The position numbers and the translations under genes are program-made. A stretch of DNA of 64,000 nt. Source: Rhizobium sp. Q54 (GTDB lineage: Bacteria; Pseudomonadota; Alphaproteobacteria; SMXQ01). Below are positions 2,524-14,331 of this stretch, in pieces. The stretch spans positions 15,585 through 79,584 of the forward strand of contig CAMAVH010000001.1 of assembly GCA_945861615.1 (NCBI GenBank), in the 5' to 3' direction. The notes beneath the pieces are model-generated. The model saw only the letters and a list, made by a program, of their open reading frames with translations, was not told the DNA's origin and searched no databases. The stretch's first letter is position 1, and each line of letters begins with the position of its first letter.

Positions 2524-4740
2524 TTGAGCGCAGTAGCCTCTCACGATCGCCAGACGGCGGCTGATCGCATTATCGAGTTCCCGATTCCGACCTCGATTGA
2601 CTGCCTGGCCGTGGCCGCCCGGCATTTCGGCGTTCACATCTCTGCGACCGCCTTTGTCAAAGATCATGCCCTGACGCAGGGCGAAGAGAATGGCGCGGCG
2701 CTCACCGCCCTCGCGCAAAAGATCGGCCTGGATGCGGCGGCTGTCGTTCCCGCCGACTGCAACCCCGCCGAGCTGGCGAAGGCCCTGCCCGCAATCCTAC
2801 GCTTGCGCAACGGCAACGCCATGCTGTTGCTCGAACTGACGCGGATCGCCGAGGGCTTCAGCGCGAAGCTCTACGACCCGACGGTCGGCGAAGCCGCCCC
2901 CTTGATCATCGACTGGGAGCGTCTCTGCGGCGCGAGCGAGGAAATTCTTCTGCTCAAGCGCGACGCCGCCAACGCCGATGAAACGGCGGAACGCGATTTC
3001 GGCATCGGTCAAGTGGTCGCCGAGGTTCGCAACGAGAAGCGCCTGTTTCGCGACATTGCCCTCGCCGCCGTGCTGATGAGCTTGACCGCGCTGGCCCCCG
3101 CGCTGTTCTGGCAACTCGTCGTCGACCGCGTGCTGGTTTACAAGAGCCTCTCGACCCTGCATGTGCTGGTCGGCGGACTGGTCTTTATCGTCCTGTTCGA
3201 TACGCTGTTCGGCTATCTGCGCCGCAGCCTGATCCTAGTCGCCACGTCACGTATCGACGCGCGGCTGTCTTCATTCATTTTCAGCCGCCTGCTCGATCTC
3301 GGCATCGATTATTTCGAACGCGCGCAGACTGGCGTCGTCGTGCGCGACGTCAATGAAGTTTGGCGCGTGCGCAATTTCCTTACCGGCCAGTTGTTCGGCA
3401 CCGTGCTCGACGCCGTCGTGCTCGTCGTCGTCCTGCCGGTGATGTTCTGGTTCAACCCGATCCTCGCCGGCGTCGTTCTCGCCATCGGCGCGCTGATGAT
3501 CCTGGCGATCCTCGCCTTCCTGCCCTTCGTGCGCCGCCGTACGGGACGCGCCTTCGAGGCCGAAGGCCGGCAAAACGCCTATCTCGTCGAATCGGTGCAA
3601 GGAATACGTACGGTCAAATCGATGGCCATGGAACGCCAACGCCGCCGCGTCTGGGACCGCCATGTGGCCGACGCGGCGCGTCTGCGCCGCGATGCGGGCG
3701 GCATCATCAACGCCCTGCAAACCGTCGTCACGCCGTTCGAGAAGATGATGACCAGCGGCGTCATCGCTCTCGCCGCCTACATGGCCGTCACCAGCAACGA
3801 TCCGGTCTATGTCGGCACGCTCATCGCCTTCGGCATGCTGACACAGCGCGTCGCCCAACCGCTGATCCAGCTCGCCTATCTCGTGCAGCAGTTCGACGAG
3901 GTCGGCCGCGCGCTGCGCACCGTCGCCGGCGTGGTCAACCAGCCACGCGAGGAAGGCCGAGGCAATGGCGGCTTGTCCACGCGAATTAAAGGCGCGGTGG
4001 AATTTTCCAACGTGCGCTTTCGCTATCCCGGCGCCGCCGCCTGCGCCCTCGACGGCGTTTCCTTCAAGGCCGAAGCCGGCAGCATCTTCGGCATCATGGG
4101 CCGCAGCGGCTCGGGCAAGACCACGGTCACCCGCCTGCTGCAAAGCCTGCATCGCAGCTACGATGGCCTGATCAAGATCGACGGCACCGACATCCGCGCC
4201 ATCGACCTCGACCATCTGCGCCGCAGCACCGGCGTCGTGCTGCAGGATAGCTTCCTATTCTCCGGCACGATCCGCGACAACATCGCCGCCGGCGCGCCCG
4301 GCGCCAGTTTCGAGCAGGTCGTCGCCGCCGCCCGTCTCGCCGGTGCCGAGGAGTTCATCGAACGGCTGCCGCGCGGCTACGATACCCATGTCGAAGAAGG
4401 CGCTTCGAACCTGTCCGGCGGCCAGAAACAGCGGCTCGCCATCGCCCGCGCCCTCATCGTCGATCCCGGTTTGCTGATTCTCGACGAAGCGACCAGCGCG
4501 CTCGATCCCGAGAGCGAGGCGATCATTAACGCGAACCTGCAGCGCATCGCCGCCGGGCGCACCGTCATCGTCATTTCGCACCGGCTCTCGTCCCTGGTCG
4601 GGGCCGATGCCATCCTCGCCCTGGAAAACGGCGCCGTCGTCGGCCTCGGGCCGCACGCGCAACTGCTGCAGCGCTGCGACATCTATCAGCGTATGTGGCG
4701 CCAGCAGAACGGCCACTGGCTGGCGGGAGCCGCCGAATGA
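2524..4740 (+). CDS. Type I secretion system ATPase/permease (HlyB family ABC transporter with an N-terminal C39-like peptidase domain)
   Basis: 738 aa. It has an N-terminal C39-like domain (…TSIDCLAVAARHFG…), a six-TM permease core and an ABC ATPase with Walker A GRSGSGKTT, signature LSGGQKQR and Walker B LLILDEATSALD. TTG start after GAGGAGG. Its stop overlaps the downstream HlyD start (ATGA). Confidence 0.9.
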   Translation: MSAVASHDRQTAADRIIEFPIPTSIDCLAVAARHFGVHISATAFVKDHALTQGEENGAALTALAQKIGLDAAAVVPADCNPAELAKALPAILRLRNGNAMLLLELTRIAEGFSAKLYDPTVGEAAPLIIDWERLCGASEEILLLKRDAANADETAERDFGIGQVVAEVRNEKRLFRDIALAAVLMSLTALAPALFWQLVVDRVLVYKSLSTLHVLVGGLVFIVLFDTLFGYLRRSLILVATSRIDARLSSFIFSRLLDLGIDYFERAQTGVVVRDVNEVWRVRNFLTGQLFGTVLDAVVLVVVLPVMFWFNPILAGVVLAIGALMILAILAFLPFVRRRTGRAFEAEGRQNAYLVESVQGIRTVKSMAMERQRRRVWDRHVADAARLRRDAGGIINALQTVVTPFEKMMTSGVIALAAYMAVTSNDPVYVGTLIAFGMLTQRVAQPLIQLAYLVQQFDEVGRALRTVAGVVNQPREEGRGNGGLSTRIKGAVEFSNVRFRYPGAAACALDGVSFKAEAGSIFGIMGRSGSGKTTVTRLLQSLHRSYDGLIKIDGTDIRAIDLDHLRRSTGVVLQDSFLFSGTIRDNIAAGAPGASFEQVVAAARLAGAEEFIERLPRGYDTHVEEGASNLSGGQKQRLAIARALIVDPGLLILDEATSALDPESEAIINANLQRIAAGRTVIVISHRLSSLVGADAILALENGAVVGLGPHAQLLQRCDIYQRMWRQQNGHWLAGAAE

Positions 4741-6059
4741 GCCCCCCCAAGAATCCCCTGCTCGCCCGCTTCTCCTCCGAAGTCGAAGCGCTGTCCGCCG
4801 AACGCGAGCCCCGGGCGGCCCGCGCCACCTTGCTCATAGCCGCCGCAACGATCGTCGTCGCGATCGGTCTCGCCTCGCAGGCACGCATCGATCGCATCGT
4901 CACTGGCAGCGGCCAACTCACGACCCAGGAGCGCACCGTCGTCGTCGGTTCGCTCAACCGCGCCATCATCAAATCGATCGAGGTTCGCGAAGGCGACCAA
5001 GTCGCCGCCGGCCAGATTCTGACGACGCTCGATCCCACCTTCGCCCTGGCCGACGTCGCCCAACTCGAAGTCCAACTCCAAAGTCTGGACGCCGAGATCG
5101 CCCGCCTCGATGCCGAGTTGGCGGACCGGCCGCTCGACACCAACCGCCTGAGCGCAAGCTACGCCGCCCTGCAGGCCAGCCTAATGGCCCAGCGGCTCAG
5201 CGAACGGACGGAAAAGTTGCGCGGTTTCGACGCCAAGATCGCCCAGCAGGAATCCACCATCATCAAGCTCACGGCCAACCGGCAACGTTACGACGAGCGC
5301 GGCAAGCTGATGCGTGAGGTCGAAGATATGCGCCGCAAGCTGGCCGAACAGCAGGTCGGTAGCCGCCTCATGCTGTTGCAGGCAATGGACCAGCGGCTTG
5401 AGGTTTTGCGCAATGCCGACTTCGACGCCAACAGCCTGGAAGAGGCTCGCCACCTGCGCGACAGCTTGCGCTCAGACCGCGAAACATTCCTGGAGCAATG
5501 GCGCACCCAGGCGCAGCTCGACCTGATCAAGAACAGCACGACGCGCGATTCGACTCTCGAACAGCTGACCAAGGCGCAGAAGAACCAGGATCTCGTCACC
5601 CTGCGCGCGCCCTCCGACGGCATCGTCCAGCAGATCGGCAAGTTTTCCGTCGGCTCGGTGCTGACCGAAGGCGTGCCGCTCGTCACTCTGGTGCCGCTCA
5701 ACGCCAAGATGGAAACGGAAGTGTCCATCGACGCACGCGACGTCGGCTTCGTGCGCCCGGGCGATCCGGTGACGCTCAAGCTCGCCGCTTACGACTTTCT
5801 CGAGCACGGCCATGTCGAAGGCACCGTCCGTACCATCAGCGAAGATGCCTTCAGCCAACAAAGCGGCCAGCCGATCCGCCCGTTCTACAAGGCGACCATC
5901 ACCATCGACCGCACGGCGCTGCGCAACGTGCCCGATAGCTTCCGTCTGAACCCCGGCATGCCGGTAACCGCGGATGTGAAGGTTGGCACGCGCAGCCTGC
6001 TGTCCTATCTCGTGCGCGGCGCGCTCCGCACCGCCGACGAAGCGATGCGCGAGCCATGA
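4737..6059 (+). CDS. HlyD-family type I secretion periplasmic adaptor (membrane fusion protein)
   Basis: Single N-terminal TM (ATLLIAAATIVVAIGLA), a long coiled-coil (LEVQLQSLDAEIARLDAEL…) and a C-terminal beta-barrel/lipoyl region (LVTLRAPSDGIVQQIGKFSVGSVL…PGMPVTADVKV), the typical HlyD/PrsE architecture. Translationally coupled on both sides. Confidence 0.9.
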   Translation: MSPPKNPLLARFSSEVEALSAEREPRAARATLLIAAATIVVAIGLASQARIDRIVTGSGQLTTQERTVVVGSLNRAIIKSIEVREGDQVAAGQILTTLDPTFALADVAQLEVQLQSLDAEIARLDAELADRPLDTNRLSASYAALQASLMAQRLSERTEKLRGFDAKIAQQESTIIKLTANRQRYDERGKLMREVEDMRRKLAEQQVGSRLMLLQAMDQRLEVLRNADFDANSLEEARHLRDSLRSDRETFLEQWRTQAQLDLIKNSTTRDSTLEQLTKAQKNQDLVTLRAPSDGIVQQIGKFSVGSVLTEGVPLVTLVPLNAKMETEVSIDARDVGFVRPGDPVTLKLAAYDFLEHGHVEGTVRTISEDAFSQQSGQPIRPFYKATITIDRTALRNVPDSFRLNPGMPVTADVKVGTRSLLSYLVRGALRTADEAMREP

Positions 6060-6899: not shown

Positions 6900-8639
6900 A
6901 TGGCCTTGAATGATATGCGTTTGACCTTCCGCGACGAGTTCAACAGCCTCAGCCTCGACACCGGTACCGCCGCGACCGATCCCAAATTTTGGAACAGCTC
7001 GATGCACAACGGCTATGTGCGATCGCTTTCCGGCAACAAGGAGCTGCAGATCTATGCGGACCCAGACTACAAGGGGCTCGGCGTCAATCCCTTCTCGGTC
7101 AACGACGGGATTTTGAGCATCAAGGCGGCGCCCGCCTCCACCGCCGTCAAGAATGCCACCGGATATGGTTATACCTCGGGTGTCCTCACCTCGCAGGGCG
7201 CCTTCTCGCAGCAATACGGTTACTTCGAAGTCCGTGCGCAGGTTCCCGAGGGCCAGGGTCTATGGCCCGCCTTCTGGCTGCTCAACGACGACGAGAACTG
7301 GCCGCCCGAACTCGACGTCATGGAAGTGATCGGCAGCGAAACGAAAGTCCTGCATCAATCCGTGCATACTGACCATCCCGACACCACCAAGGTGACCTAT
7401 CTCCCCGAGAAGCTGTCGGCCGGCTTTCACACCTATGGCATGGACTGGACGAAGAGCAACATTACCTTCTATCTCGACGGCAAGGTGACGGGAACCGTCG
7501 CCACGCCCAGCGATATTCACGGCTCGATGTACATGGTGCTCAACCTGGCCGTCGGCGGCACCTGGCCCGGCTCGCCCAATGCCGCGACCAATTTCGCCAC
7601 CGCCAAGCTGAACGTCGATTACGTCCGCGTTTACCAGCATGGCGGTTCGGGCGGCGTGCTTCCGGTCGGCGGATCGACGACCACTCCGGCGCCGACCACG
7701 CCGGCCCCGACCACCCCAACGCCGGCCCCGCAAGCCGGCCTCGTGATGCCCACGTTCAATTCGCAAACGGCCCTGCCGAGCGCGCTGCTCGCGCCGGATG
7801 CCGCCTTCAAATCCTGGCCGCCCGCTCATGTGAAGATCAGCAACGGCGGCACCGTGTCTGTCGCGGACGGATCGAGCGTCCGGCTATTCGAACATGCCGC
7901 CGGCACGAGCAAGACCTATGGGGCGAGCCAGCTCAAGCTCCAAGGCACGCCCGACGGCGCGAGCGTCAGCGCGAGCTACGACGCCAAGAAGAATATCACC
8001 GTCGTCAACAATGGCGCGTGGGGCGGCATCGACAATGCCGCGGTGCGCTCAGGCGTGATGAGCGTCATGACCGTGAAGAACTTCGCCGGCGTCGAAATCG
8101 ACAATGGCCGGTCGCAGGGTGCGACCGTGAATGTCTCCGACGTCATGCGCGGCTCAATCGCCACGAGTGGCGGTAACGACAGCCTACAGATCACCGGAAA
8201 AAGCAATGCCACCAGCGGCAACCTGTTGACCATCTCCGCCGGGAACGGCAACAACAGCGTTAACTATAGCGGCGGCGCGAGCAATCGGGCGGCGATCATT
8301 ACCGGCTCGGGCGCCGACACTGTCACCTTCGGCGGTCAGGCCAACGGAGCGATCAATACCGGAGCCGGCAATGATCGCGTGAACGTCCGCTCCACCGGCA
8401 ACGTTGCCGTCACCGGCGGCGCCGGCGCGGATATCTTCTCTTTCATCGCCGGGGCCCATGCCACCATCGCCGACTTCAAGGCAGGCGAGGACCGCGTCGA
8501 GTTTTCCGGAGTCAGCGCCGCCAATGTGCAAGTGCGCAGCAACGGCAGCAGCACGCTGATCGACCTCAATGGCAATAGCGCCGTCGTGCTCTCCGGCGTC
8601 ACCTTGAGCGCGAGCCAACTGAACCTGAGCTACGCCTAA
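6900..8639 (+). CDS. Secreted glycoside hydrolase family 16 glycanase with C-terminal RTX-like calcium-binding repeats (T1SS substrate; ExsH/PlyA-like)
   Basis: The N-terminal GH16 domain carries the catalytic motif E-L-D-V-M-E (WPPELDVMEVIG). It has a Pro/Thr linker (TTTPAPTTPAPTTPTPAP). The C-terminal half has GGxGxD-type nonapeptides (GGAGADIFSF, GAGNDRVNV, SGGNDSLQI). There is no N-terminal signal peptide, which is typical of T1SS cargo. The start is taken at ATG 6900 (MALNDMRLTF); the upstream extension of the ORF overlaps the Sel1 gene. Confidence 0.85.
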   Translation: MALNDMRLTFRDEFNSLSLDTGTAATDPKFWNSSMHNGYVRSLSGNKELQIYADPDYKGLGVNPFSVNDGILSIKAAPASTAVKNATGYGYTSGVLTSQGAFSQQYGYFEVRAQVPEGQGLWPAFWLLNDDENWPPELDVMEVIGSETKVLHQSVHTDHPDTTKVTYLPEKLSAGFHTYGMDWTKSNITFYLDGKVTGTVATPSDIHGSMYMVLNLAVGGTWPGSPNAATNFATAKLNVDYVRVYQHGGSGGVLPVGGSTTTPAPTTPAPTTPTPAPQAGLVMPTFNSQTALPSALLAPDAAFKSWPPAHVKISNGGTVSVADGSSVRLFEHAAGTSKTYGASQLKLQGTPDGASVSASYDAKKNITVVNNGAWGGIDNAAVRSGVMSVMTVKNFAGVEIDNGRSQGATVNVSDVMRGSIATSGGNDSLQITGKSNATSGNLLTISAGNGNNSVNYSGGASNRAAIITGSGADTVTFGGQANGAINTGAGNDRVNVRSTGNVAVTGGAGADIFSFIAGAHATIADFKAGEDRVEFSGVSAANVQVRSNGSSTLIDLNGNSAVVLSGVTLSASQLNLSYA

Positions 8640-8649
8640 GCCTATCGAG

Positions 8650-8677
8650 GGGCGGGCCGATGGGCCCGCCCCTCGCG
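8650..8677 (+). terminator. GC-rich stem-loop between the two glycanase paralogs (GAGGGGCGGGCC-gatg-GGCCCGCCCCTC)
   Basis: A perfect 12-bp inverted repeat directly after the stop at 8639. It has no T-tract, so it may act as an attenuator or mRNA-stability element rather than a full terminator. Confidence 0.4.
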
Positions 8678-8723
8678 CGTGCCGGCAATCTGCTTCCATC
8701 AACGCCAATCCCGGGGGGATATC

Positions 8724-11252
8724 ATGGCACTCGACGATCTGCGCCTGTCGTTCCGCGACGAATTCAGCAGCCTCAGCCTCGACACCGGCACCGCCGCGAC
8801 CGCACCGAACTTCTGGAACAGCTCCATGCATTCGGGTCATGTTCGCAACTTGGCGAACAATGGCGAATTGCAAATTTACGCCGACGCCGACTACCTCGGC
8901 CTTGGCGTCACACCCTTCTCGGTCAACAACGGCATCCTGACCATCAAGGCCGCGCCCGCCTCGTCCAGCGTCCAGACGGCGACCGGTTACAACTACACCT
9001 CCGGCGTCCTCACTTCGCAGGGCGCCTTTTCGCAGGCCTACGGCTATTTCGAAGTTCGCGCGCAGCTGCCCGAGGGCAAGGGGCTGTGGCCGGCCTTCTG
9101 GCTGCTCAACGAGAACGAGCAATGGCCGCCCGAACTCGACATCATGGAAGTGATCGGCAGCGAGACCAACTGGCTTACGCAGACGATCCACACCGACACG
9201 GGCAACGCCACCAGCGGCAATACCTGGAGCATCGACAAGCTCTCGGCCGGCTATCACAGCTACGGCATGGATTGGACCCAGAGCCAGATCACCTTCTATC
9301 TTGACGGCAAGCAGACTTGGTCGATGGCGACGCCGTCGGACCTCAACACGCCGATGTATATGGTGCTCAACCTGGCGGTCGGCGGCAATTGGCCGGGTAC
9401 GCCGGACGCGACCACCAACTGGGCGAACGCCAAGTACAACATCGACTATGTGCGCGTGTACCAGCATACCGGCACGCCCGGCATCGGCGGCGTGCTTAAC
9501 CCGGATGGTTCGGTCTATGTGCCGCCACCCGTCGCTCAGCTGCCCGGCCTCATCATCAGCAACGGCGCCGATATCACCGGCATGACCGGCACGAAGTTCG
9601 CCGTACCGGACGCGGGGCCCGGCACGACCAGGACCTACACGGCCAGCCAGATCGCCCTCGGGACCGCCGGCGGCGCAACGCTGACGGTGCTCCGAGATGG
9701 ACAGAACAATATCGCCGCCAGCAACAACGGCGCCTGGAACGATATCAAAAACGCCGCTTACGCCTCCGACAGCGTCAAGGGCGTGACGTTGAACAATTTC
9801 GTCGGGATCGGCATCTGGATGAACGGCGATCAGGATTCCGTCGTCGCCGTCAACAACAGCAAGCGCGGCACGATCACCACGACCGGCGGCCACGACCGGA
9901 TCACCGTCGCGGCCTTCAGCAACGGCATCACCGACAATATCATCGCGATCGATAGCGGCGACGGCAACGATATCATCGCCTTCACCGGCGCCGCCAACAC
10001 GCGAACGGACATCGCCGCCGGCGGCGGTGACGATACCGTCACCTTTTCCGATCAGGCTTCCGGCAGCGCCAAGGGCGGCGGGGGCGACGACAGCTTCATC
10101 ATCCGGTCCGGCGGCACGATCAGCCTGAACGGTGGCGCCGGCATCGACAGCTACGACCTCGCCGCAGGCAATCGGGTCACTATCGCCGACTTCCGGCTCG
10201 GCGAGGACAGGCTGACCTTGAACGGCGTCGCTGCCAGCGCCATCACCGTCCGCAACGCCGGCGGCAACAGCTATGTCGATGTCAATGGGACCGCCACCGC
10301 GACGCTGACCGGCGTGAACCTGAACAGCATCGATCTCGGCTTCGTCGCAGCGCCCGTCGTCATCCCTGTGTTCGACTGCAAAACGATCATGCCGAGCGCG
10401 CTGCTGATGCCGGATTCTTCCTTCAAAAACTGGCCGATCACCCATGCCAAGCTGAGCAACGGCGCGGACATCTCGGTCGCCGGCGGCAGCAGCTTCGCCG
10501 CCCCGGAAAGCGGCGCCAGCACGTCGAAAAGCTATACGGCGAGCCAGATCGGCCTCGGCACGGCCGCCGGCACCACCGTTACCCTCGCCTACGATGCGCA
10601 GAAAAACATCACGGTCACGAACAATGGCGCCTGGGGCGGCGTCAAGAACGCCGCGTTGCGTTCCGGCGCCATGACCAAGATGACGGTCAGCAACTTCATG
10701 GGCGTCGACATCGACATGAACGCCAACCAGAGCGGCACGGTGACGATCGCAGACGTGATGCGCGGCTCGGTCGCGACCGGCGGGGGAAACGACGTGATTA
10801 ACGTCACCGGCAAGAGCGACGGCGGTGCCGCCAACCTGATGAGCATCTCGGCGGGCAACGGCACCAATACCGTCAGCTATAGCGGCACGAGCGGCAACCG
10901 CGCGGCGATCATCACGGGCGGCGGCGCCGACAGGATCAGCTTCGCCGGCCAAGCCGATGGCGCGATCAATGTCGGGGCAGGCAACGACCGGGTGGACGTC
11001 CGCTCGACCGGCACTGTCGCCGTCACCGGCGGCGCCGGGTCGGATATCTTCTCCTTCATCGCCGGGGCCCATGCCAGCATCGCCGACTTCAACGCCGGCG
11101 AGGATCGGATCGAATTTTCCGGCGTCAGCGCCGCCAACGTCCGGATCCGGACCGACGGCAGCAGCACCCTGATCGACCTCAACGGCACGAGCGCCGTGGT
11201 GCTCTCGGGCGTCGCCCTCGGCGCCGGCCAGATCAACCTGAGCTACGTTTAG
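8724..11252 (+). CDS. Secreted GH16 glycanase paralog with two tandem C-terminal RTX-like/beta-roll modules (T1SS substrate)
   Basis: 842 aa. The N-terminal GH16 domain is about 70% identical to the upstream paralog (same ELDIMEV catalytic motif). It is followed by two roughly 265-aa modules that each resemble the C-terminal half of the first glycanase. The last about 100 aa are nearly identical to the paralog (…GGAGSDIFSFIAGAHASIADFNAGEDRIEFSGVSAANVRIRTDGSSTLIDLNGTSAVVLSGV…LSYV). Start at ATG 8724 after GGGGGA. Confidence 0.85.
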   Translation: MALDDLRLSFRDEFSSLSLDTGTAATAPNFWNSSMHSGHVRNLANNGELQIYADADYLGLGVTPFSVNNGILTIKAAPASSSVQTATGYNYTSGVLTSQGAFSQAYGYFEVRAQLPEGKGLWPAFWLLNENEQWPPELDIMEVIGSETNWLTQTIHTDTGNATSGNTWSIDKLSAGYHSYGMDWTQSQITFYLDGKQTWSMATPSDLNTPMYMVLNLAVGGNWPGTPDATTNWANAKYNIDYVRVYQHTGTPGIGGVLNPDGSVYVPPPVAQLPGLIISNGADITGMTGTKFAVPDAGPGTTRTYTASQIALGTAGGATLTVLRDGQNNIAASNNGAWNDIKNAAYASDSVKGVTLNNFVGIGIWMNGDQDSVVAVNNSKRGTITTTGGHDRITVAAFSNGITDNIIAIDSGDGNDIIAFTGAANTRTDIAAGGGDDTVTFSDQASGSAKGGGGDDSFIIRSGGTISLNGGAGIDSYDLAAGNRVTIADFRLGEDRLTLNGVAASAITVRNAGGNSYVDVNGTATATLTGVNLNSIDLGFVAAPVVIPVFDCKTIMPSALLMPDSSFKNWPITHAKLSNGADISVAGGSSFAAPESGASTSKSYTASQIGLGTAAGTTVTLAYDAQKNITVTNNGAWGGVKNAALRSGAMTKMTVSNFMGVDIDMNANQSGTVTIADVMRGSVATGGGNDVINVTGKSDGGAANLMSISAGNGTNTVSYSGTSGNRAAIITGGGADRISFAGQADGAINVGAGNDRVDVRSTGTVAVTGGAGSDIFSFIAGAHASIADFNAGEDRIEFSGVSAANVRIRTDGSSTLIDLNGTSAVVLSGVALGAGQINLSYV

Positions 11253-11417
11253 GCGAGAGGGCCCGGTCTTATTCAAGACTGGGCCCTCCCCTTCCCTGCG
11301 TTGCCCATATCCTCCGCGCCCTGTAAAACGGAAGCGCGCCCATAAAAACAAAGCGGGGCGCGCCTGCCGCCCTGCGGTTTCTAGGGCAGCATGCAAAACA
11401 GATCAGGGAGACGGCCC

Positions 11418-12554
11418 ATGCTCATCATCGGCAACGACATCGTCGCGGACATCCTCAAGATGCCCGACGTGCTGCGCGTCCAGGAAGCGGCTTTTCGCCA
11501 ACTGCCGACCGGTGGCGCCATCCATCGCCCGCGTATCGACATGTACGTGCCCTGCGACCGGCCCGATGGCTATTTCCGCTGGGGCACCATGGAAGGCGCC
11601 AACGACGGCTACTTCGCCATCCGCATGAAATCCGACATCATCACCTGGCCGAAGACCGCCGACGGCGGCTGGACCGAGGACAAATATTGCCGCGAGCCCG
11701 GCACTTATTGCGGCCTCATCATGCTGATCTCGACGCGCAACGGCGAGCCGCTCGCCTTCATCAACGACGGCATCCTGCAGCATATGCGCGTCGGCGGCGG
11801 CGCCGGCATCGGCGTGAAATATCTCTCGCGCGAGGACAGCCACACCGTCGGCATGATCGGCTCGGGCGGCATGGCCCGCACCTTCCTCGACGCCTTCCGC
11901 TGCGTGCGCGACATCCGGAAGGTCAAGGTCTACAGCCCGAACGCGAAGAACCGCGAGGCCTACGCGGAAGAAATGTCGCGCCAGCATGGCATCGAGGTCG
12001 TCGCCGTCGATAGCGCCCGCGAAGCGGTACGCGGCGTCGATATTCTGTCCACCTGCACCGACAGCATGGCGGCGGTCTATGACGCCGACTGGCTGGAAAA
12101 GGGCATGCACGTGACCAATCTTAGCCGGCGCGAGCAGCCCGACGCCGCGGCGGCCAAGTTCGATGTGGTGGTTCGTCAAGGCACCGCCGGCCTGCAGATG
12201 AAGCAGAGCGAACGCTTTCAGGCCGAACGCGGCCATTCGCCAGCCGCCTATATCGGCGGCACCCCCGAGCAGATGAAGATCATTCCGGAAAAGAACCCTG
12301 AGCCCGGCTTCGGCGGTGACAGCCCGGACTTCACCGACCGCGGCAAGGGCGGCGACAAGCCGGACTTCGCCGATCTGGTGAGCGGCAAGGCTAAGGGCCG
12401 CACCAGCCGCGACCAGATCACCTTTTATCGCAACGTCGGCAACCAGGGCCTGCAGTTCTCCGCCGTCGGCGGCTGGATCTACAGCCAAGCCACCAAGCTC
12501 GGCAAAGGCCGCGAGATTCCCACCGACTGGTTCTTGCAGGATATCCGGGATTAG
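11418..12554 (+). CDS. Ornithine cyclodeaminase/mu-crystallin family protein
   Basis: It has a Rossmann NAD motif (VGMIGSGGMARTFLDAF), an OCD-like N-terminus and a C-terminal ITFYRNVGNQGLQFSAV…. There is an insertion of about 70 aa (…PEQMKIIPEKNPEPGFGGDSPDFTDRGKGGDKPDF…) before the last conserved block. Good RBS (AGGGAGACGGCCC-ATG). Confidence 0.7.
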   Translation: MLIIGNDIVADILKMPDVLRVQEAAFRQLPTGGAIHRPRIDMYVPCDRPDGYFRWGTMEGANDGYFAIRMKSDIITWPKTADGGWTEDKYCREPGTYCGLIMLISTRNGEPLAFINDGILQHMRVGGGAGIGVKYLSREDSHTVGMIGSGGMARTFLDAFRCVRDIRKVKVYSPNAKNREAYAEEMSRQHGIEVVAVDSAREAVRGVDILSTCTDSMAAVYDADWLEKGMHVTNLSRREQPDAAAAKFDVVVRQGTAGLQMKQSERFQAERGHSPAAYIGGTPEQMKIIPEKNPEPGFGGDSPDFTDRGKGGDKPDFADLVSGKAKGRTSRDQITFYRNVGNQGLQFSAVGGWIYSQATKLGKGREIPTDWFLQDIRD

Positions 12555-12568
12555 CGTCATATCCGGAG

Positions 12569-12787
12569 ATGAGTACCGACTCCCTCACCCAGCGCCTCCT
12601 CGATATCGAACATCGTCTCGCCCATAGCGAACGGATGACGGAAGACCTCTCCGTCATCGTCGCCAAGCAGGCGTCTGAGATCGCCCTGCTCAACCAAAAG
12701 ATCGCCCTGCTGACGCAGCGGCTGAAGGAGAGCGCCGCGCAATGGGATCCGTCGCCGCGCGACAGCGAGCCGCCGCCCCACTACTGA
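12569..12787 (+). CDS. slyX: SlyX-family protein
   Basis: 72 aa coiled-coil protein: LTQRLLDIEHRLAHSERMTEDLSVIVAKQASEIALLNQKIALLTQRL. Confidence 0.7.
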   Translation: MSTDSLTQRLLDIEHRLAHSERMTEDLSVIVAKQASEIALLNQKIALLTQRLKESAAQWDPSPRDSEPPPHY

Positions 12788-12799
12788 CAACGGCGCGCC

Positions 12800-13078
12800 A
12801 TGAGCGACGGATTTCCCGATTACTTCGTCTATGTTCTGCGCAACGGCGCCGGCACGCTCTACACCGGCATCGCCAAGGACGTCGAGGCTCGCTGCGACGC
12901 GCATAACGCCGGCAAGGGCGCGCGCTACACGCGCGGCCGCGGGCCGTGGACCATCGCCCATATCGAGGGACCGCTGGCGCATGGCGAGGCGCTGCGCCGC
13001 GAGGCCGCGCTCAAGCGCGACCGCGCCTTCAAAAGCGGCTTGAAAGCGAAATTGGGACTCGTCGGATCGAAAGCGTGA
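12800..13078 (+). CDS. GIY-YIG nuclease-family protein (UPF0213/YhbQ-like)
   Basis: 92 aa: YFVYVLRNGAGTLYTGIAKDVEARCDAHNAGKGARYTRGRGPWTI, the GIY-YIG signature. Confidence 0.8.
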   Translation: MSDGFPDYFVYVLRNGAGTLYTGIAKDVEARCDAHNAGKGARYTRGRGPWTIAHIEGPLAHGEALRREAALKRDRAFKSGLKAKLGLVGSKA

Positions 13079-13086
13079 AGCCGGCG

Positions 13087-13479
13087 CTATTTGCCGGCGG
13101 ATGCGACCGGCGGATAAGGCGTCCAGAAATAGATCAGCGGCCGGCCCAGACGCTCTTCCAGTTGTTCAAGCGCTTGGTAGGCGGCACGCCGCTGCGCCTC
13201 ATGCAGCGCTTCGCCGCGCCGCGCCCGGACGGCGACGAACACCGATTCGCCTTCCGCAAGATCGGCGCCGACCATCGCATAGGCTTTGCTGCCGAGGATA
13301 CCGAGGCTGGCACAGGCGACGGCCAATGCAGGGGTAGCCGAAACGAGCGACGAAGCACTCATCTCCGGCACGGCATCGACTGCGGATACGCTGGCAACCA
13401 TAGGAATCCTCCGACTGAAAACTGATCGGAAGTCTAACGGCGGCGGCGCGGAATCGCTCCGCGCACGTTGGCCGGTCAC
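13087..13479 (-). CDS. Hypothetical protein (possibly an MTH1187/YkoF-like small alpha/beta protein)
   Basis: 130-aa ORF with coherent composition and no recognised motif. The start may be the internal M (MVASVSAVD…). Confidence 0.4.
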   Translation of the reverse strand: MTGQRARSDSAPPPLDFRSVFSRRIPMVASVSAVDAVPEMSASSLVSATPALAVACASLGILGSKAYAMVGADLAEGESVFVAVRARRGEALHEAQRRAAYQALEQLEERLGRPLIYFWTPYPPVASAGK

Positions 13480-13579
13480 AAAAGCTCCACGCCGCGTGTC
13501 ATGATCGCACGGCTAATCGCGCGCAGGGAGCCGGAGCGCTCAAGCGCGCGTCATCGATTCGGCAAATTGTGAGTGAAAA

Positions 13580-13657
13580 TGGTCGGGACGATAGGATTTG
13601 AACCTACGACCCTCAGACCCCCAGTCTGATGCGCTACCAGGCTGCGCTACGCCCCGA
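13580..13657 (-). tRNA. tRNA-Pro (anticodon GGG)
   Basis: The reverse complement folds as a cloverleaf. The acceptor arm CGGGGCG/CGUCCCG includes one G-U pair. The D-arm is GCGC-AGCCUGGUA-GCGC. The anticodon arm is UCAGA-CUGGGGG-UCUGA, which gives anticodon GGG. The T-arm is GUAGG-UUCAAAU-CCUAU. The CCA end is encoded. Confidence 0.85.
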
Positions 13658-13794
13658 CCTTGTCCACCAGCCGGCATGGGAAACTTAATCCGTCGGCGGA
13701 GGGGGCGGAATGTACCCCGCCCATCCCACAGCCGCAATGGCTGAACGCAGCGAAAATCTCGTGGAAAATCAGCGCCGAAAACAGCGGATCGCGG

Positions 13795-14331
13795 CTATTT
13801 GCGCAGAAGCGCGCGCAAGCCGGACAATTCGTCGAGCAGCGCCTTGAGCGCCGCCTTGGTTTCGTCGTCGAGGCCCGAGCCGCGCACCGCCTTCGCCGTC
13901 GTCGCGATCGACGGCGCCGCGACCGTCTGCGGCCCGGTTTGCGGCTTGGAGGTTTCGACGACGCGGGGCGCTTGCCCCGGCGCTGCATGAGGCTCGGCCG
14001 GCGCGCGGCCCGGCTTCAGGCCGCCGTCGCGCAGCAGTTTTTGCACGCCTTTAATGGTGTAGCCGTCACCGTAGAGCAGCGCACGGATGGCGCGCAGCAG
14101 CTCTACGTCCTCGGGCCGGTAATAGCGCCGGCCGCCGCCGCGCTTGAGCGGGCGGATCTGCGAGAACTTGGTTTCCCAGAAGCGCAGGACATGCTGCGGC
14201 ACGTCGAGGTCCGTGGCGACCTCGCTGATCGTGCGGAAGGCGCTGGCGGATTTCATGCCGCGGCGCGCCAAGCCGGCCGCATCGGGCGCCTCGGCGAAGG
14301 CGCCGTTCGTCTGCTCTGCGCTGTCCGCCAT
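13795..14331 (-). CDS. MerR-family transcriptional regulator
   Basis: HTH region [51 protein letters not shown]. The MerR gene sits downstream of ihfA, as in many alphaproteobacteria. Confidence 0.85.

Follow-up and report, generated by a model that had tools for sequence, protein, structure and literature searches.

Two tandem genes, p1 and p2, in a 64,000-nt stretch of DNA from the alphaproteobacterium Rhizobium sp. Q54 (contig CAMAVH010000001.1, positions 15,585 to 79,584; the whole stretch is called the window below) encode putative GH16 endo-beta-glycanases, which are predicted to be substrates of the putatively HlyB-type type I secretion system (T1SS) encoded directly upstream. We think it probable, with some room for doubt, that p1 and p2 are T1SS substrates derived from an ancestral gene of the form GH16-A-B, a catalytic domain followed by two C-terminal modules, through tandem duplication, loss of a module from one copy and an old conversion of the 3′ end. 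The argument is built on domain families, fold class, synteny, module phylogeny and breakpoint statistics, from which we infer that the proteins are secreted, depend on Ca2+ and bind sugar, and that conversion caused the pattern at the 3′ end.

The coordinates, lengths and ends of both genes given by the initial annotation agreed with the open reading frame (ORF) listing and translation, and every peptide string that it quoted was found in the two proteins (Table 1). The p1/p2 region was 63–65% G+C, and the G+C content of third codon positions (GC3) was ~0.8–0.87 in both frames, typical of real genes here. Pfam model PF00722 matched p1 at E = 1.7e-25 (89.9 bits) and p2 at E = 9.2e-25 (87.5 bits) against a cutoff of 22 bits, and the catalytic ExDxxE motif was intact in both proteins (ELDVME in p1, ELDIME in p2, each at aa 137–142). 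By domain profile and catalytic motif p1 and p2 are GH16 family members, with a predicted glycanase activity. In both proteins the GH16 domain stands at the very N-terminus. The NCBIfam EglC model (NF052454) matched the GH16 part of p1 at E = 1e-71; p1 scored 242.3 and p2 228.8 bits against an equivalog cutoff of 700, only model positions 216–457 being aligned.

BLASTP aligned p1 with p2 in two registers (1–574 to 1–538 and 281–578 to 545–841), indicating that p2 has the architecture of p1 plus one internal module. The three modules (C1 of p1, A and B of p2) aligned end to end, and at the DNA level they formed three-copy direct-repeat families in register, with an A–B spacing of 897 nt. Thus, the proposals that the second glycanase is the first plus an extra copy of the C-terminal module, and that the module boundaries align as repeats, were both confirmed. 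The Pro/Thr-rich linker of p1 (TTTPAPTTPAPTTPTPAP) holds a short direct repeat with a 15-nt offset; it has no counterpart in p2 and is longer or different in orthologs, as expected of a length-variable spacer.

The transporter encoded upstream of p1 matched TIGR01846 (type_I_sec_HlyB) over residues 25–729 (model positions 2–693) at 565.9 bits, below the cutoff of 725.55; this full-length match of 566 bits compares with 307 bits for the shorter PrtD-type model TIGR01842. No Peptidase_C39 match at E<=0.01 was found in the transporter in the Pfam scan. A scan of species-representative genomes yielded 14 loci, all from alphaproteobacterial metagenome-assembled genomes (MAGs). The order ATP-binding cassette (ABC) transporter, membrane-fusion protein (MFP), Sel1-repeat protein and glycanase(s) recurred in seven other loci (L001, L003, L006, L008, L009, L012 and L015). 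In all seven the transporter was syntenic, with 68–80% identity, and the Sel1 gene separated the MFP gene from the first glycanase gene, as in every T1SS-linked locus. Synteny between L015 and the window extended over 20 kb.

Full orthologs of p2 were found in L001, L003 and L015, and also in L016 (P0009), the two-module gene being the constant member. Three of the relatives, L001, L003 and L015, have the flanking genes of the window. L001 and L003 had the p2 ortholog only; the short paralog and the adjacent ornithine-cyclodeaminase-like gene were jointly missing from them. In L015 (7386–11686) the p2 ortholog came first and a p1-like gene second, so that the p1–p2 order of the window was swapped, and comparison of the intergenic DNA of the window and L015 gave no alignable signal by which to trace this swap. 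L002 had a truncated 3′ end of the p2 ortholog followed by a p1-like gene. L016, on a short contig with the flanking genes off the contig, had the p1 ortholog and then the p2 ortholog, in the order of the window. Sites in the flanking genes favoured the topology (window, L003)|(L001, L015), and this topology together with the distribution of the genes indicated that the short paralog was lost or moved more than once.

Three loci of the family (L004, L006 and L012) were seen on one 1.2-Mb MAG contig, CAVVYA010000002.1, and two of them had an ABC-MFP-Sel1 set of their own. L012 contained an apparent two-module gene interrupted by frameshifts; in L006 the assembly likewise has a frameshifted GH16 gene, of which P0012 is the intact version.

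The module of p1 and p2 is ~270–300 aa long and consists of a beta-rich front, four to five turns of 19–21 residues and a C-terminal cap. Each turn carries one calcium-type motif xGxGxDxUx, at a spacing of 19–21 residues and not 9; the cap reads …DFxxGEDRxxxxGV…, and the chain terminates in Φ-x-(Y/F)-(A/V). No Pfam or NCBIfam model covered the module. Its annotation as canonical RTX (tandem GGxGxDxUx nonapeptides) was considered and ruled out, since PF00353 and the other Pfam and NCBIfam models failed.

An AlphaFold2 model of the module, built with eight relatives, was all-beta, with a predicted local distance difference test score (pLDDT) of 85 and a predicted template-modelling score of 0.85. 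In a Foldseek comparison with the PDB, the 36 best matches (E below 0.7), including all five below 0.001, were beta-roll proteins. Nearly all of them were T1SS substrates (the PML lipase of Pseudomonas MIS38, CyaA RTX, serralysins and AlgE6 R1), the sole non-T1SS protein among the 36 being CylK. When the module profile was compared with PDB sequences, a single significant match was obtained, 3p4g (MpIBP region IV; E = 1.1e-17, profile positions 117–208), and the 19–21-residue spacing of xGxGxDxUx fits this match, as region IV has non-canonical 19-residue RTX repeats. As modelled, the module is a parallel beta-roll resembling T1SS substrates. The enzymes were thus modular as expected, GH16 being followed by a duplicated beta-roll region, and their genes lie next to those of a T1SS.

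An exhaustive search of 1.84 billion representatives with the module profile returned 5763 proteins, most of which were giant repeat proteins aligning to the roll region only; the complete module was present in roughly 25 cluster representatives. Carriers other than GH16 enzymes were a serralysin-like metalloprotease, a subtilase and a glucose/sorbosone-dehydrogenase-like (GSDH) protein, in which the module often stood beside canonical RTX repeats. The module deserves a family definition of its own, as a candidate undescribed domain family that has no Pfam model. The architectures seen with GH16 included GH16-C, GH16-A-B, GH16-C-C, N-GH16-C, N-C-GH16-C and N-N-GH16-C, and with the other cargo these agree with the proposed module shuffling, number and order varying across the family. 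The distant GH16 relatives L007–L011, L014, P0010, P0020 and P0026 have an extra N-terminal RTX-like module of ~200–240 aa, which is doubled in L010 and L011 and is similar to what the EglC/ExsH model implies for its N-terminal half. In L008/P0011 and P0035 a C-type module lies ahead of the GH16 domain.

The GH16 tree joined p1 with L002g2 (support 0.92) and p2 with L001 and L003 (1.00). In the module tree the p1 module fell into the B clade (1.00), and the A modules formed a separate clade (1.00); with more taxa the p1 module branched basally, or nearly so, within the B clade, with weak support for its exact placement. The leader of the p1 module was a clear homolog of the A–B interlinker of p2 (GLVMPTFNSQTALPSALLAPDAAFKSWP against VVIPVFDCKTIMPSALLMPDSSFKNWP), and this homolog was absent from more distant single-module relatives. 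Because p1 carries it, p1 is read as a reduced copy: on these sequences the simplest and more likely reading is that GH16-A-B was the form of the gene before duplication, module A being lost from p1 afterwards. Hence the description of p2 as p1 plus a module holds structurally but not historically; p1 is more likely p2 minus a module, given the conserved two-module gene and the interlinker in p1. A whole-module swap from p2 to p1 was first suggested by the incongruence of the GH16 and module trees; the basal position is explained equally well if a two-module ancestor lost module A, and this simpler model was kept.

Modules were also duplicated independently elsewhere (P0010, L008/P0011, L012 and P0025), indicating that module number changes repeatedly. 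The short-gene module of L002 and L015 fell outside both the A and B clades. Sliding identity along this p1-like module leaned only slightly to A in the front, so that an A/B hybrid is at most slightly favoured; its end resembles B through terminal constraint.

C1 and B shared 66% aa identity, and A shared 38–41% with either. Over the last 100 aa, p1 and p2 were 82% identical, with 18 differences, and the nucleotide identity was likewise 82%, with 53 differences; the corresponding values were 72% aa and 72% nt for GH16 (72–75% nt across estimates) and 59% aa and 68% nt for the module front. To call the final ~100 residues almost identical, as the initial annotation did, was therefore an overstatement. 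The 3′ ends were indeed closer than the GH16 regions overall, but the best 300-nt window of GH16 (7045–7344 against 8869–9168) reached 81%, about equal to the 82% of the 3′ window (8281–8580 against 10894–11193), and the longest identical run was 22 nt in the 3′ end and in GH16 alike.

The history of the tract was compared in a quartet of W_p1, X_p1, W_p2 and X_p2 (W, window; X, L016). In the module front (184 codons), 73 nt sites supported orthology against 125 singletons; in the last 100 codons only 6 did so against 76 singletons, and another 6 sites backed the two alternative topologies (concerted:orthologous:cross = 4:6:2). Fisher's test of front against tract gave p = 1.6e-7 for nt sites, 7e-4 for aa sites and 0.03 for third positions. 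The maximum chi-square of 22.1, a value reached in 0 of 2000 permutations (p<0.0005), placed a breakpoint at p1 aa ~479 (nt ~8334) and p2 aa ~742 (nt ~10947); the orthology fraction of variable sites was 0.30 to its left and 0.06 to its right. In bootstrap trees of the last 100 codons the clade (W_p2, X_p2) was lost, its support being below 0.2, down from 1.00. When the window was compared with L015 over the last 76 codons, the within-genome topology was favoured 11:5:0 (p = 0.004; 4 of the 11 sites synonymous), and the parallel comparison of L016 with L015 gave 8:3:5 (p = 0.13). The terminal-branch change per codon was not lower in the tract and multiple-hit sites were rare, indicating that neither slow evolution nor saturation explains the absence of p1/p2 differences.

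At the sequence level these patterns fit a background of purifying selection overlaid by one or a few old conversions, which were restricted to the last ~300 bp and took place around the time when the window and L016 diverged. The claim that gene conversion acts on the C-terminal region thus stands as regards the different history of the tract, which both the breakpoint and the quartet tests support, but not as regards anything recent or ongoing, given a synonymous divergence (dS) of 0.59 and identical runs of at most 22 nt.

Purifying selection alone, with the last ~100 aa forming a constrained secretion signal and cap and p1 and p2 never exchanging DNA, is a possible alternative that we consider unlikely. 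Several results speak for it. The tract was conserved throughout the family (60–88% identity between genomes) and on unrelated cargo, and the last 100 aa of p1 were 86% identical to the L001 ortholog of p2, above its own neighbour p2. In the last 100 codons of p1 and p2 the nonsynonymous divergence (dN) was 0.10 (dN/dS ~0.18), against a dN of 0.21 and dS of 0.97 for GH16 and a dN of 0.33 and dS of 0.79 for the remaining module; the dS of the tract was like that between genomes (0.37–0.79), and all pair types in the tract gave 0.28–0.59. The identity of four-fold sites was 67% in the last 100 codons and 57% in GH16, and not significantly raised (p = 0.29), and long identical p1/p2 runs were absent. 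Part of the 3′ similarity, then, is family-wide constraint and not conversion alone, as the dN/dS and the 86% identity to another genome's p2 ortholog indicate. Against selection as the sole cause stand the significant breakpoint and the singleton counts given above, which show no slowing of the tract relative to the module front since the window/L016 split. The fall in fixed p1-versus-p2 differences from 73 to 6, seen at third positions too, also tells against it, the few multiple hits arguing against saturation, and the sites that cluster within genomes include synonymous ones.

Convergent co-evolution, in which both substrates independently gained lineage-specific signal changes as the ABC transporter and its C39-like domain (CLD) changed, and no DNA was exchanged, appears quite improbable. 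The CLD is the main specificity determinant in HlyB (PMC11026475), C-termini cluster by locus even on unrelated cargo (L006c), and 7 of the 11 concerted sites are nonsynonymous, all of which would agree with it; the other 4 are synonymous, the orthology signal is lost at third positions as well, and the near absence of fixed p1/p2 differences is left unexplained. That recent or ongoing conversion keeps the signal regions of the paralogs nearly identical is the hardest of these alternatives to credit: the 82% identity of the last 300 nt, against 72–75% over GH16, would agree with it, but the differences counted in the last 100 codons, the dS, the length of the longest run, the best GH16 window and the fast divergence of the p2 C-terminus from its ortholog all contradict it.

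Since the L016 split, 8 of the last 100 aa have changed in p2 and 12 in its ortholog, while the counts for p1 and its ortholog are 1 and 4, and the dN/dS of the tract was ~0.5 for p2 and 0.13 for p1. This suggests that the signal region of p2 is under relaxed or diversifying selection.

An alignment compared 26 terminal with 6 internal modules, the latter of three independent origins. ADFxxGEDRxxxxGV, which had been named as a candidate recognition element for the transporter, was retained in 6 of 6 internal modules; D-F, the Asp of GEDR, the following G-V and the last GGxGxD turn were kept in all or nearly all of them. This indicates that the block is more likely structural (last turn plus cap) than terminal-specific, and the comparison lends no support to the proposed role in recognition. 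In CyaA, folding of the beta-roll needs the C-cap (PMC6891781, PMC9120197). Terminal modules conserve F-x-F, A-H-A (within AGAHAT) and the final pair of an aromatic and a small residue, for which internal modules mostly have substitutions, so that, judged by this comparison, F-x-F-x-AGAHAT and the terminal (Y/F)(A/V) are better candidates for recognition. With HlyA as substrate, unfolded RTX is bound sequence-specifically by the CLD and the extreme C-terminal signal by the nucleotide-binding domain, a HlyA-type signal lying within the last 48–60 aa (PMC11026475). By analogy with this binding of RTX, ADFxxGEDRxxxxGV may have a role in CLD binding.

In L006 a 1013-aa protein (10842–13880, + strand) with no Pfam domain and a Pro-rich N-terminal region is encoded 3′ of two tandem GH16 genes and a T1SS, and it ends in the common ~100-aa cassette (…TGGTGRDVFAFVAGAHATITDFKSSDDRIELSG…NISYT). 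Its last 77 aa were 67–69% identical to the two neighbouring glycanases, above any protein of another genome, which suggests a locus-specific cassette. A broader proposal, which we offer tentatively and regard as doubtful, is that the last ~80–100 aa (…FxFxAGAHAT-x-DFxxGxDxxxxxG…Φx(Y/F)(A/V)) are a portable, system-specific targeting cassette of this one clade of Sel1-associated CLD-type T1SSs, matched by occasional conversion and co-evolving with the transporter. Conversion would then keep the cassettes of every substrate served by a given transporter in step, those of paralogous glycanases and of unrelated cargo (the L006 protein, for example) alike, and internal modules would be disarmed by loss of the AGAHA and terminal aromatic features.

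The explanation that we favour may be pictured as follows. Having no Sec signal, p1 and p2 would carry an export and folding region at the C-terminus. The unfolded C-terminus would engage the ABC/MFP/TolC machine and the chain would exit C-terminus first; outside, the beta-roll would fold on Ca2+ and ratchet the enzyme out. The folded modules would probably be polysaccharide-binding rods, similar to AlgE R-modules, and tune the product size. Module A would be an old duplicate that lost its terminal-specific residues. The ancestral GH16-A-B gene would have been duplicated in tandem, p1 keeping the interlinker and the B-type module only, and the short paralog would have been lost, moved or remodelled in related genomes in a birth-and-death pattern. 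The last ~100 codons would have been homogenised by gene conversion at about the window/L016 split, with weaker signs in another lineage and none that are recent.

Several points weigh against this explanation. The locus has no TolC gene. PF00353 gave no match to the module (E = 0.24, 11.9 bits against a cutoff of 23), and the similarity of AlgE R-modules to it in the profile search was not significant (2agm, E = 0.53). In the full-length model of p2 (pLDDT 64), A and B had the same strand pattern, with a low-confidence linker between them, and the model was too poor to reveal module packing. The conversion signal comes from few sites (6 against 6 informative sites, 11:5:0 and 8:3:5), and L016 lacks the 5′ part of p1, which leaves the upstream limit of orthology uncheckable. 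As a clock, dS was tried and discarded: all comparisons gave 0.3–1.0, near saturation under strong GC3 bias, so that the events are not datable by it. Finally, strong rate heterogeneity or transporter co-evolution could mimic part of the tract pattern.

The locus resembles several known systems. In Sinorhizobium meliloti the PrsD/PrsE T1SS exports ExsH (York & Walker 1997, cited in PMC4916376 and PMC2275737). p1 and p2 are like S. meliloti ExsH/EglC (GH16 endo-1,3-1,4-beta-glycanases) in that p1 and the EglC model have the GH16 catalytic domain in common, in being T1SS-linked putative polysaccharide depolymerases with Gly/Asp-rich repeats (as described in the same papers), and in that their distant relatives (L007–L011, L014 and P0010) bear an N-terminal RTX-like module as the ExsH/EglC model does. 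Unlike the EglC model, in which GH16 is C-terminal (216–457 of 459), p1 and p2 have GH16 at the N-terminus followed by one or two modules of 270–300 aa; the p1 score is far under the equivalog cutoff, and no exopolysaccharide genes that could name a substrate were found in the 64-kb window. The better fit of the transporter to the HlyB-type than to the PrtD-type model is by NCBIfam models only, PrsD itself being outside the comparison.

The AlgE enzymes have 1–4 R-modules, which bind substrate, tune processivity and group by position rather than by gene (PMC4444821). Like Azotobacter vinelandii AlgE1–7 and AlyA3, p1 and p2 are clustered paralogous enzymes, here putatively T1SS-exported, that differ in the number of beta-roll modules (PMC4444821), and AlgE6 R1 (2ml1) matched the module model structurally (template-modelling (TM) score 0.57 by target, root-mean-square deviation 3.6 Å). 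Unlike AlgE/AlyA3, with a beta-helix epimerase or lyase, p1 and p2 have the GH16 jelly roll as catalytic fold, and AlgE R-modules are ~155 aa long with canonical nonapeptides.

MpIBP of Marinomonas primoryensis has 19-residue repeats, and the modules are like its region IV (3P4G) in their 19–21-residue turns with one xGxGxD each and in belonging to (predicted) T1SS substrates (PMC6891781); region IV, unlike the four to five turns inside an enzyme-attached module, is one continuous ice-binding roll of 12 repeats in a 1.5-MDa adhesin. As in RTX block V of CyaA, whose beta-roll relies on the C-terminal cap and, while being secreted, folds starting at the C-terminus (PMC9120197, PMC6891781), the modules end in a cap, and three CyaA structures (5cvw, 9p0c and 9p0d) matched the module model at TM scores of 0.5–0.65 by target. 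Unlike p1 and p2, CyaA is a toxin with canonical nonapeptide blocks, and it has no sequence similarity to them. PlyA, PlyB and PlyC of Rhizobium leguminosarum, which are secreted by PrsDE, are likewise paralogous glycanases with one gene adjoining the T1SS genes (PMC2275737). They were absent among the module homologs in the module searches, no direct sequence comparison being made. Their catalytic domains are not known to be related to GH16. Thus, the locus is the ExsH/PrsDE and PlyA/PrsDE theme on an AlgE-like architecture, and by sequence it is not an ExsH/EglC equivalog, a PF00353 RTX protein or an AlgE R-module protein.

The remaining features of the locus are listed in Table 1. The Sel1 protein has no obvious N-terminal signal peptide and a weak NCBIfam match to ExoR (E = 9e-4). 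Directly 5′ of the ABC transporter gene is a 92-aa ORF (2006–2284, + strand) with no Pfam match, which has 85–87% aa identity in L001, L003 and L015, above that of the transporter (76–80%). Downstream of p2 are the ornithine-cyclodeaminase-like gene and then housekeeping genes. Both hairpins that trail the glycanase genes have perfect stems and no U-run, and the one between p1 and p2 has a homologous element at the equivalent intergenic position in L016; transcription termination or stabilisation of the mRNA would be a possible function of both. A scan for promoter and terminator consensus sequences gave nothing informative. An antisense ORF of 1070 aa (8184–11396, − strand) covers nearly all of p2, and shorter ones cover p1. 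It failed the GC3/GC2 composition filter for likely genes, and is probably a by-product of high G+C and Gly/Asp/Thr-rich repeats and not a gene. A plasmid origin was considered and set aside. Megablast against plasmids found only a short stretch of ABC transporter, at 76–77% identity, in Rhizobium, and the exact p1 and p2 proteins were found in metagenome assemblies only.

Table 1. Features of the p1/p2 locus (nucleotide positions of the window, with aa positions where marked)
Feature	Position	Strand	Remarks
ABC transporter, putatively HlyB-type T1SS, N-terminal C39-like domain	2524..4740	+	PF00664, PF00005; start codon uncertain
HlyD-family T1SS membrane-fusion (periplasmic adaptor) protein	4695..6059	+	TIGR01843, 322 bits, above cutoff 208.65; PF13437
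Sel1-repeat protein, putative, 266 aa	6056..6856	+	PF08238, E = 6.8e-21; between MFP and first glycanase genes
p1, single-module GH16 glycanase, 579 aa	6900..8639	+	starts MALNDMRL, ends LSYA
p1 GH16	6900-7640 (aa 1-247)	+	catalytic ELDVME at 7308-7325
p1 Pro/Thr linker	7641-7736	+	
p1 leader homologous to p2 A–B interlinker	7737-7832	+	
p1 beta-roll module core (C1)	7833-8636	+	
p1 3′ tract, last ~100 codons	8334..8639	+	breakpoint and quartet tests; shallower p1/p2 history
p1 tract elements	FSFIAGAHAT 8436-8465; ADFKAGEDRVEFSGV 8469-8513; C-terminal LSYA	+	comparison of terminal and internal modules
GC-rich hairpin between p1 and p2	8649..8672	+	stem 10-12 bp, no U-run; minimum free energy -44.2 kcal/mol, z = -2.5
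p2, two-module GH16 glycanase, 842 aa	8724..11252	+	starts MALDDLRL, ends LSYV
p2 GH16	8724-9467 (aa 1-248)	+	catalytic ELDIME at 9132-9149
p2 internal module A	9540-10355 (aa 273-544)	+	PGLIISNG...GFVAAP
p2 interlinker, 31 aa	10356-10448	+	linker plus module B begin at aa 545 (VVIPVFDC...)
p2 terminal module B core	10449-11249	+	
p2 3′ tract matching p1 tract	10947..11252	+	breakpoint and quartet tests
GC-rich hairpin after p2	11257..11288	+	14-bp stem; z = -4.4 for region 11250-11392

T1SS secretion signals are notoriously unconserved and hard to define. This small alphaproteobacterial family has an unusually well conserved signal and cap region, for which its internal modules are natural controls, and the contrast between terminal and internal modules singles out F-x-F-x-AGAHAT and the terminal Y/F-A/V as candidate recognition determinants. 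The C-terminal region would be a compact tag for the export of enzymes. The variable number of modules parallels that of the AlgE epimerases and may tune the action of the enzymes on polysaccharides. The system is otherwise an ordinary T1SS with modular paralogous substrates, which would have been shaped by duplication, module loss and occasional 3′ conversion.

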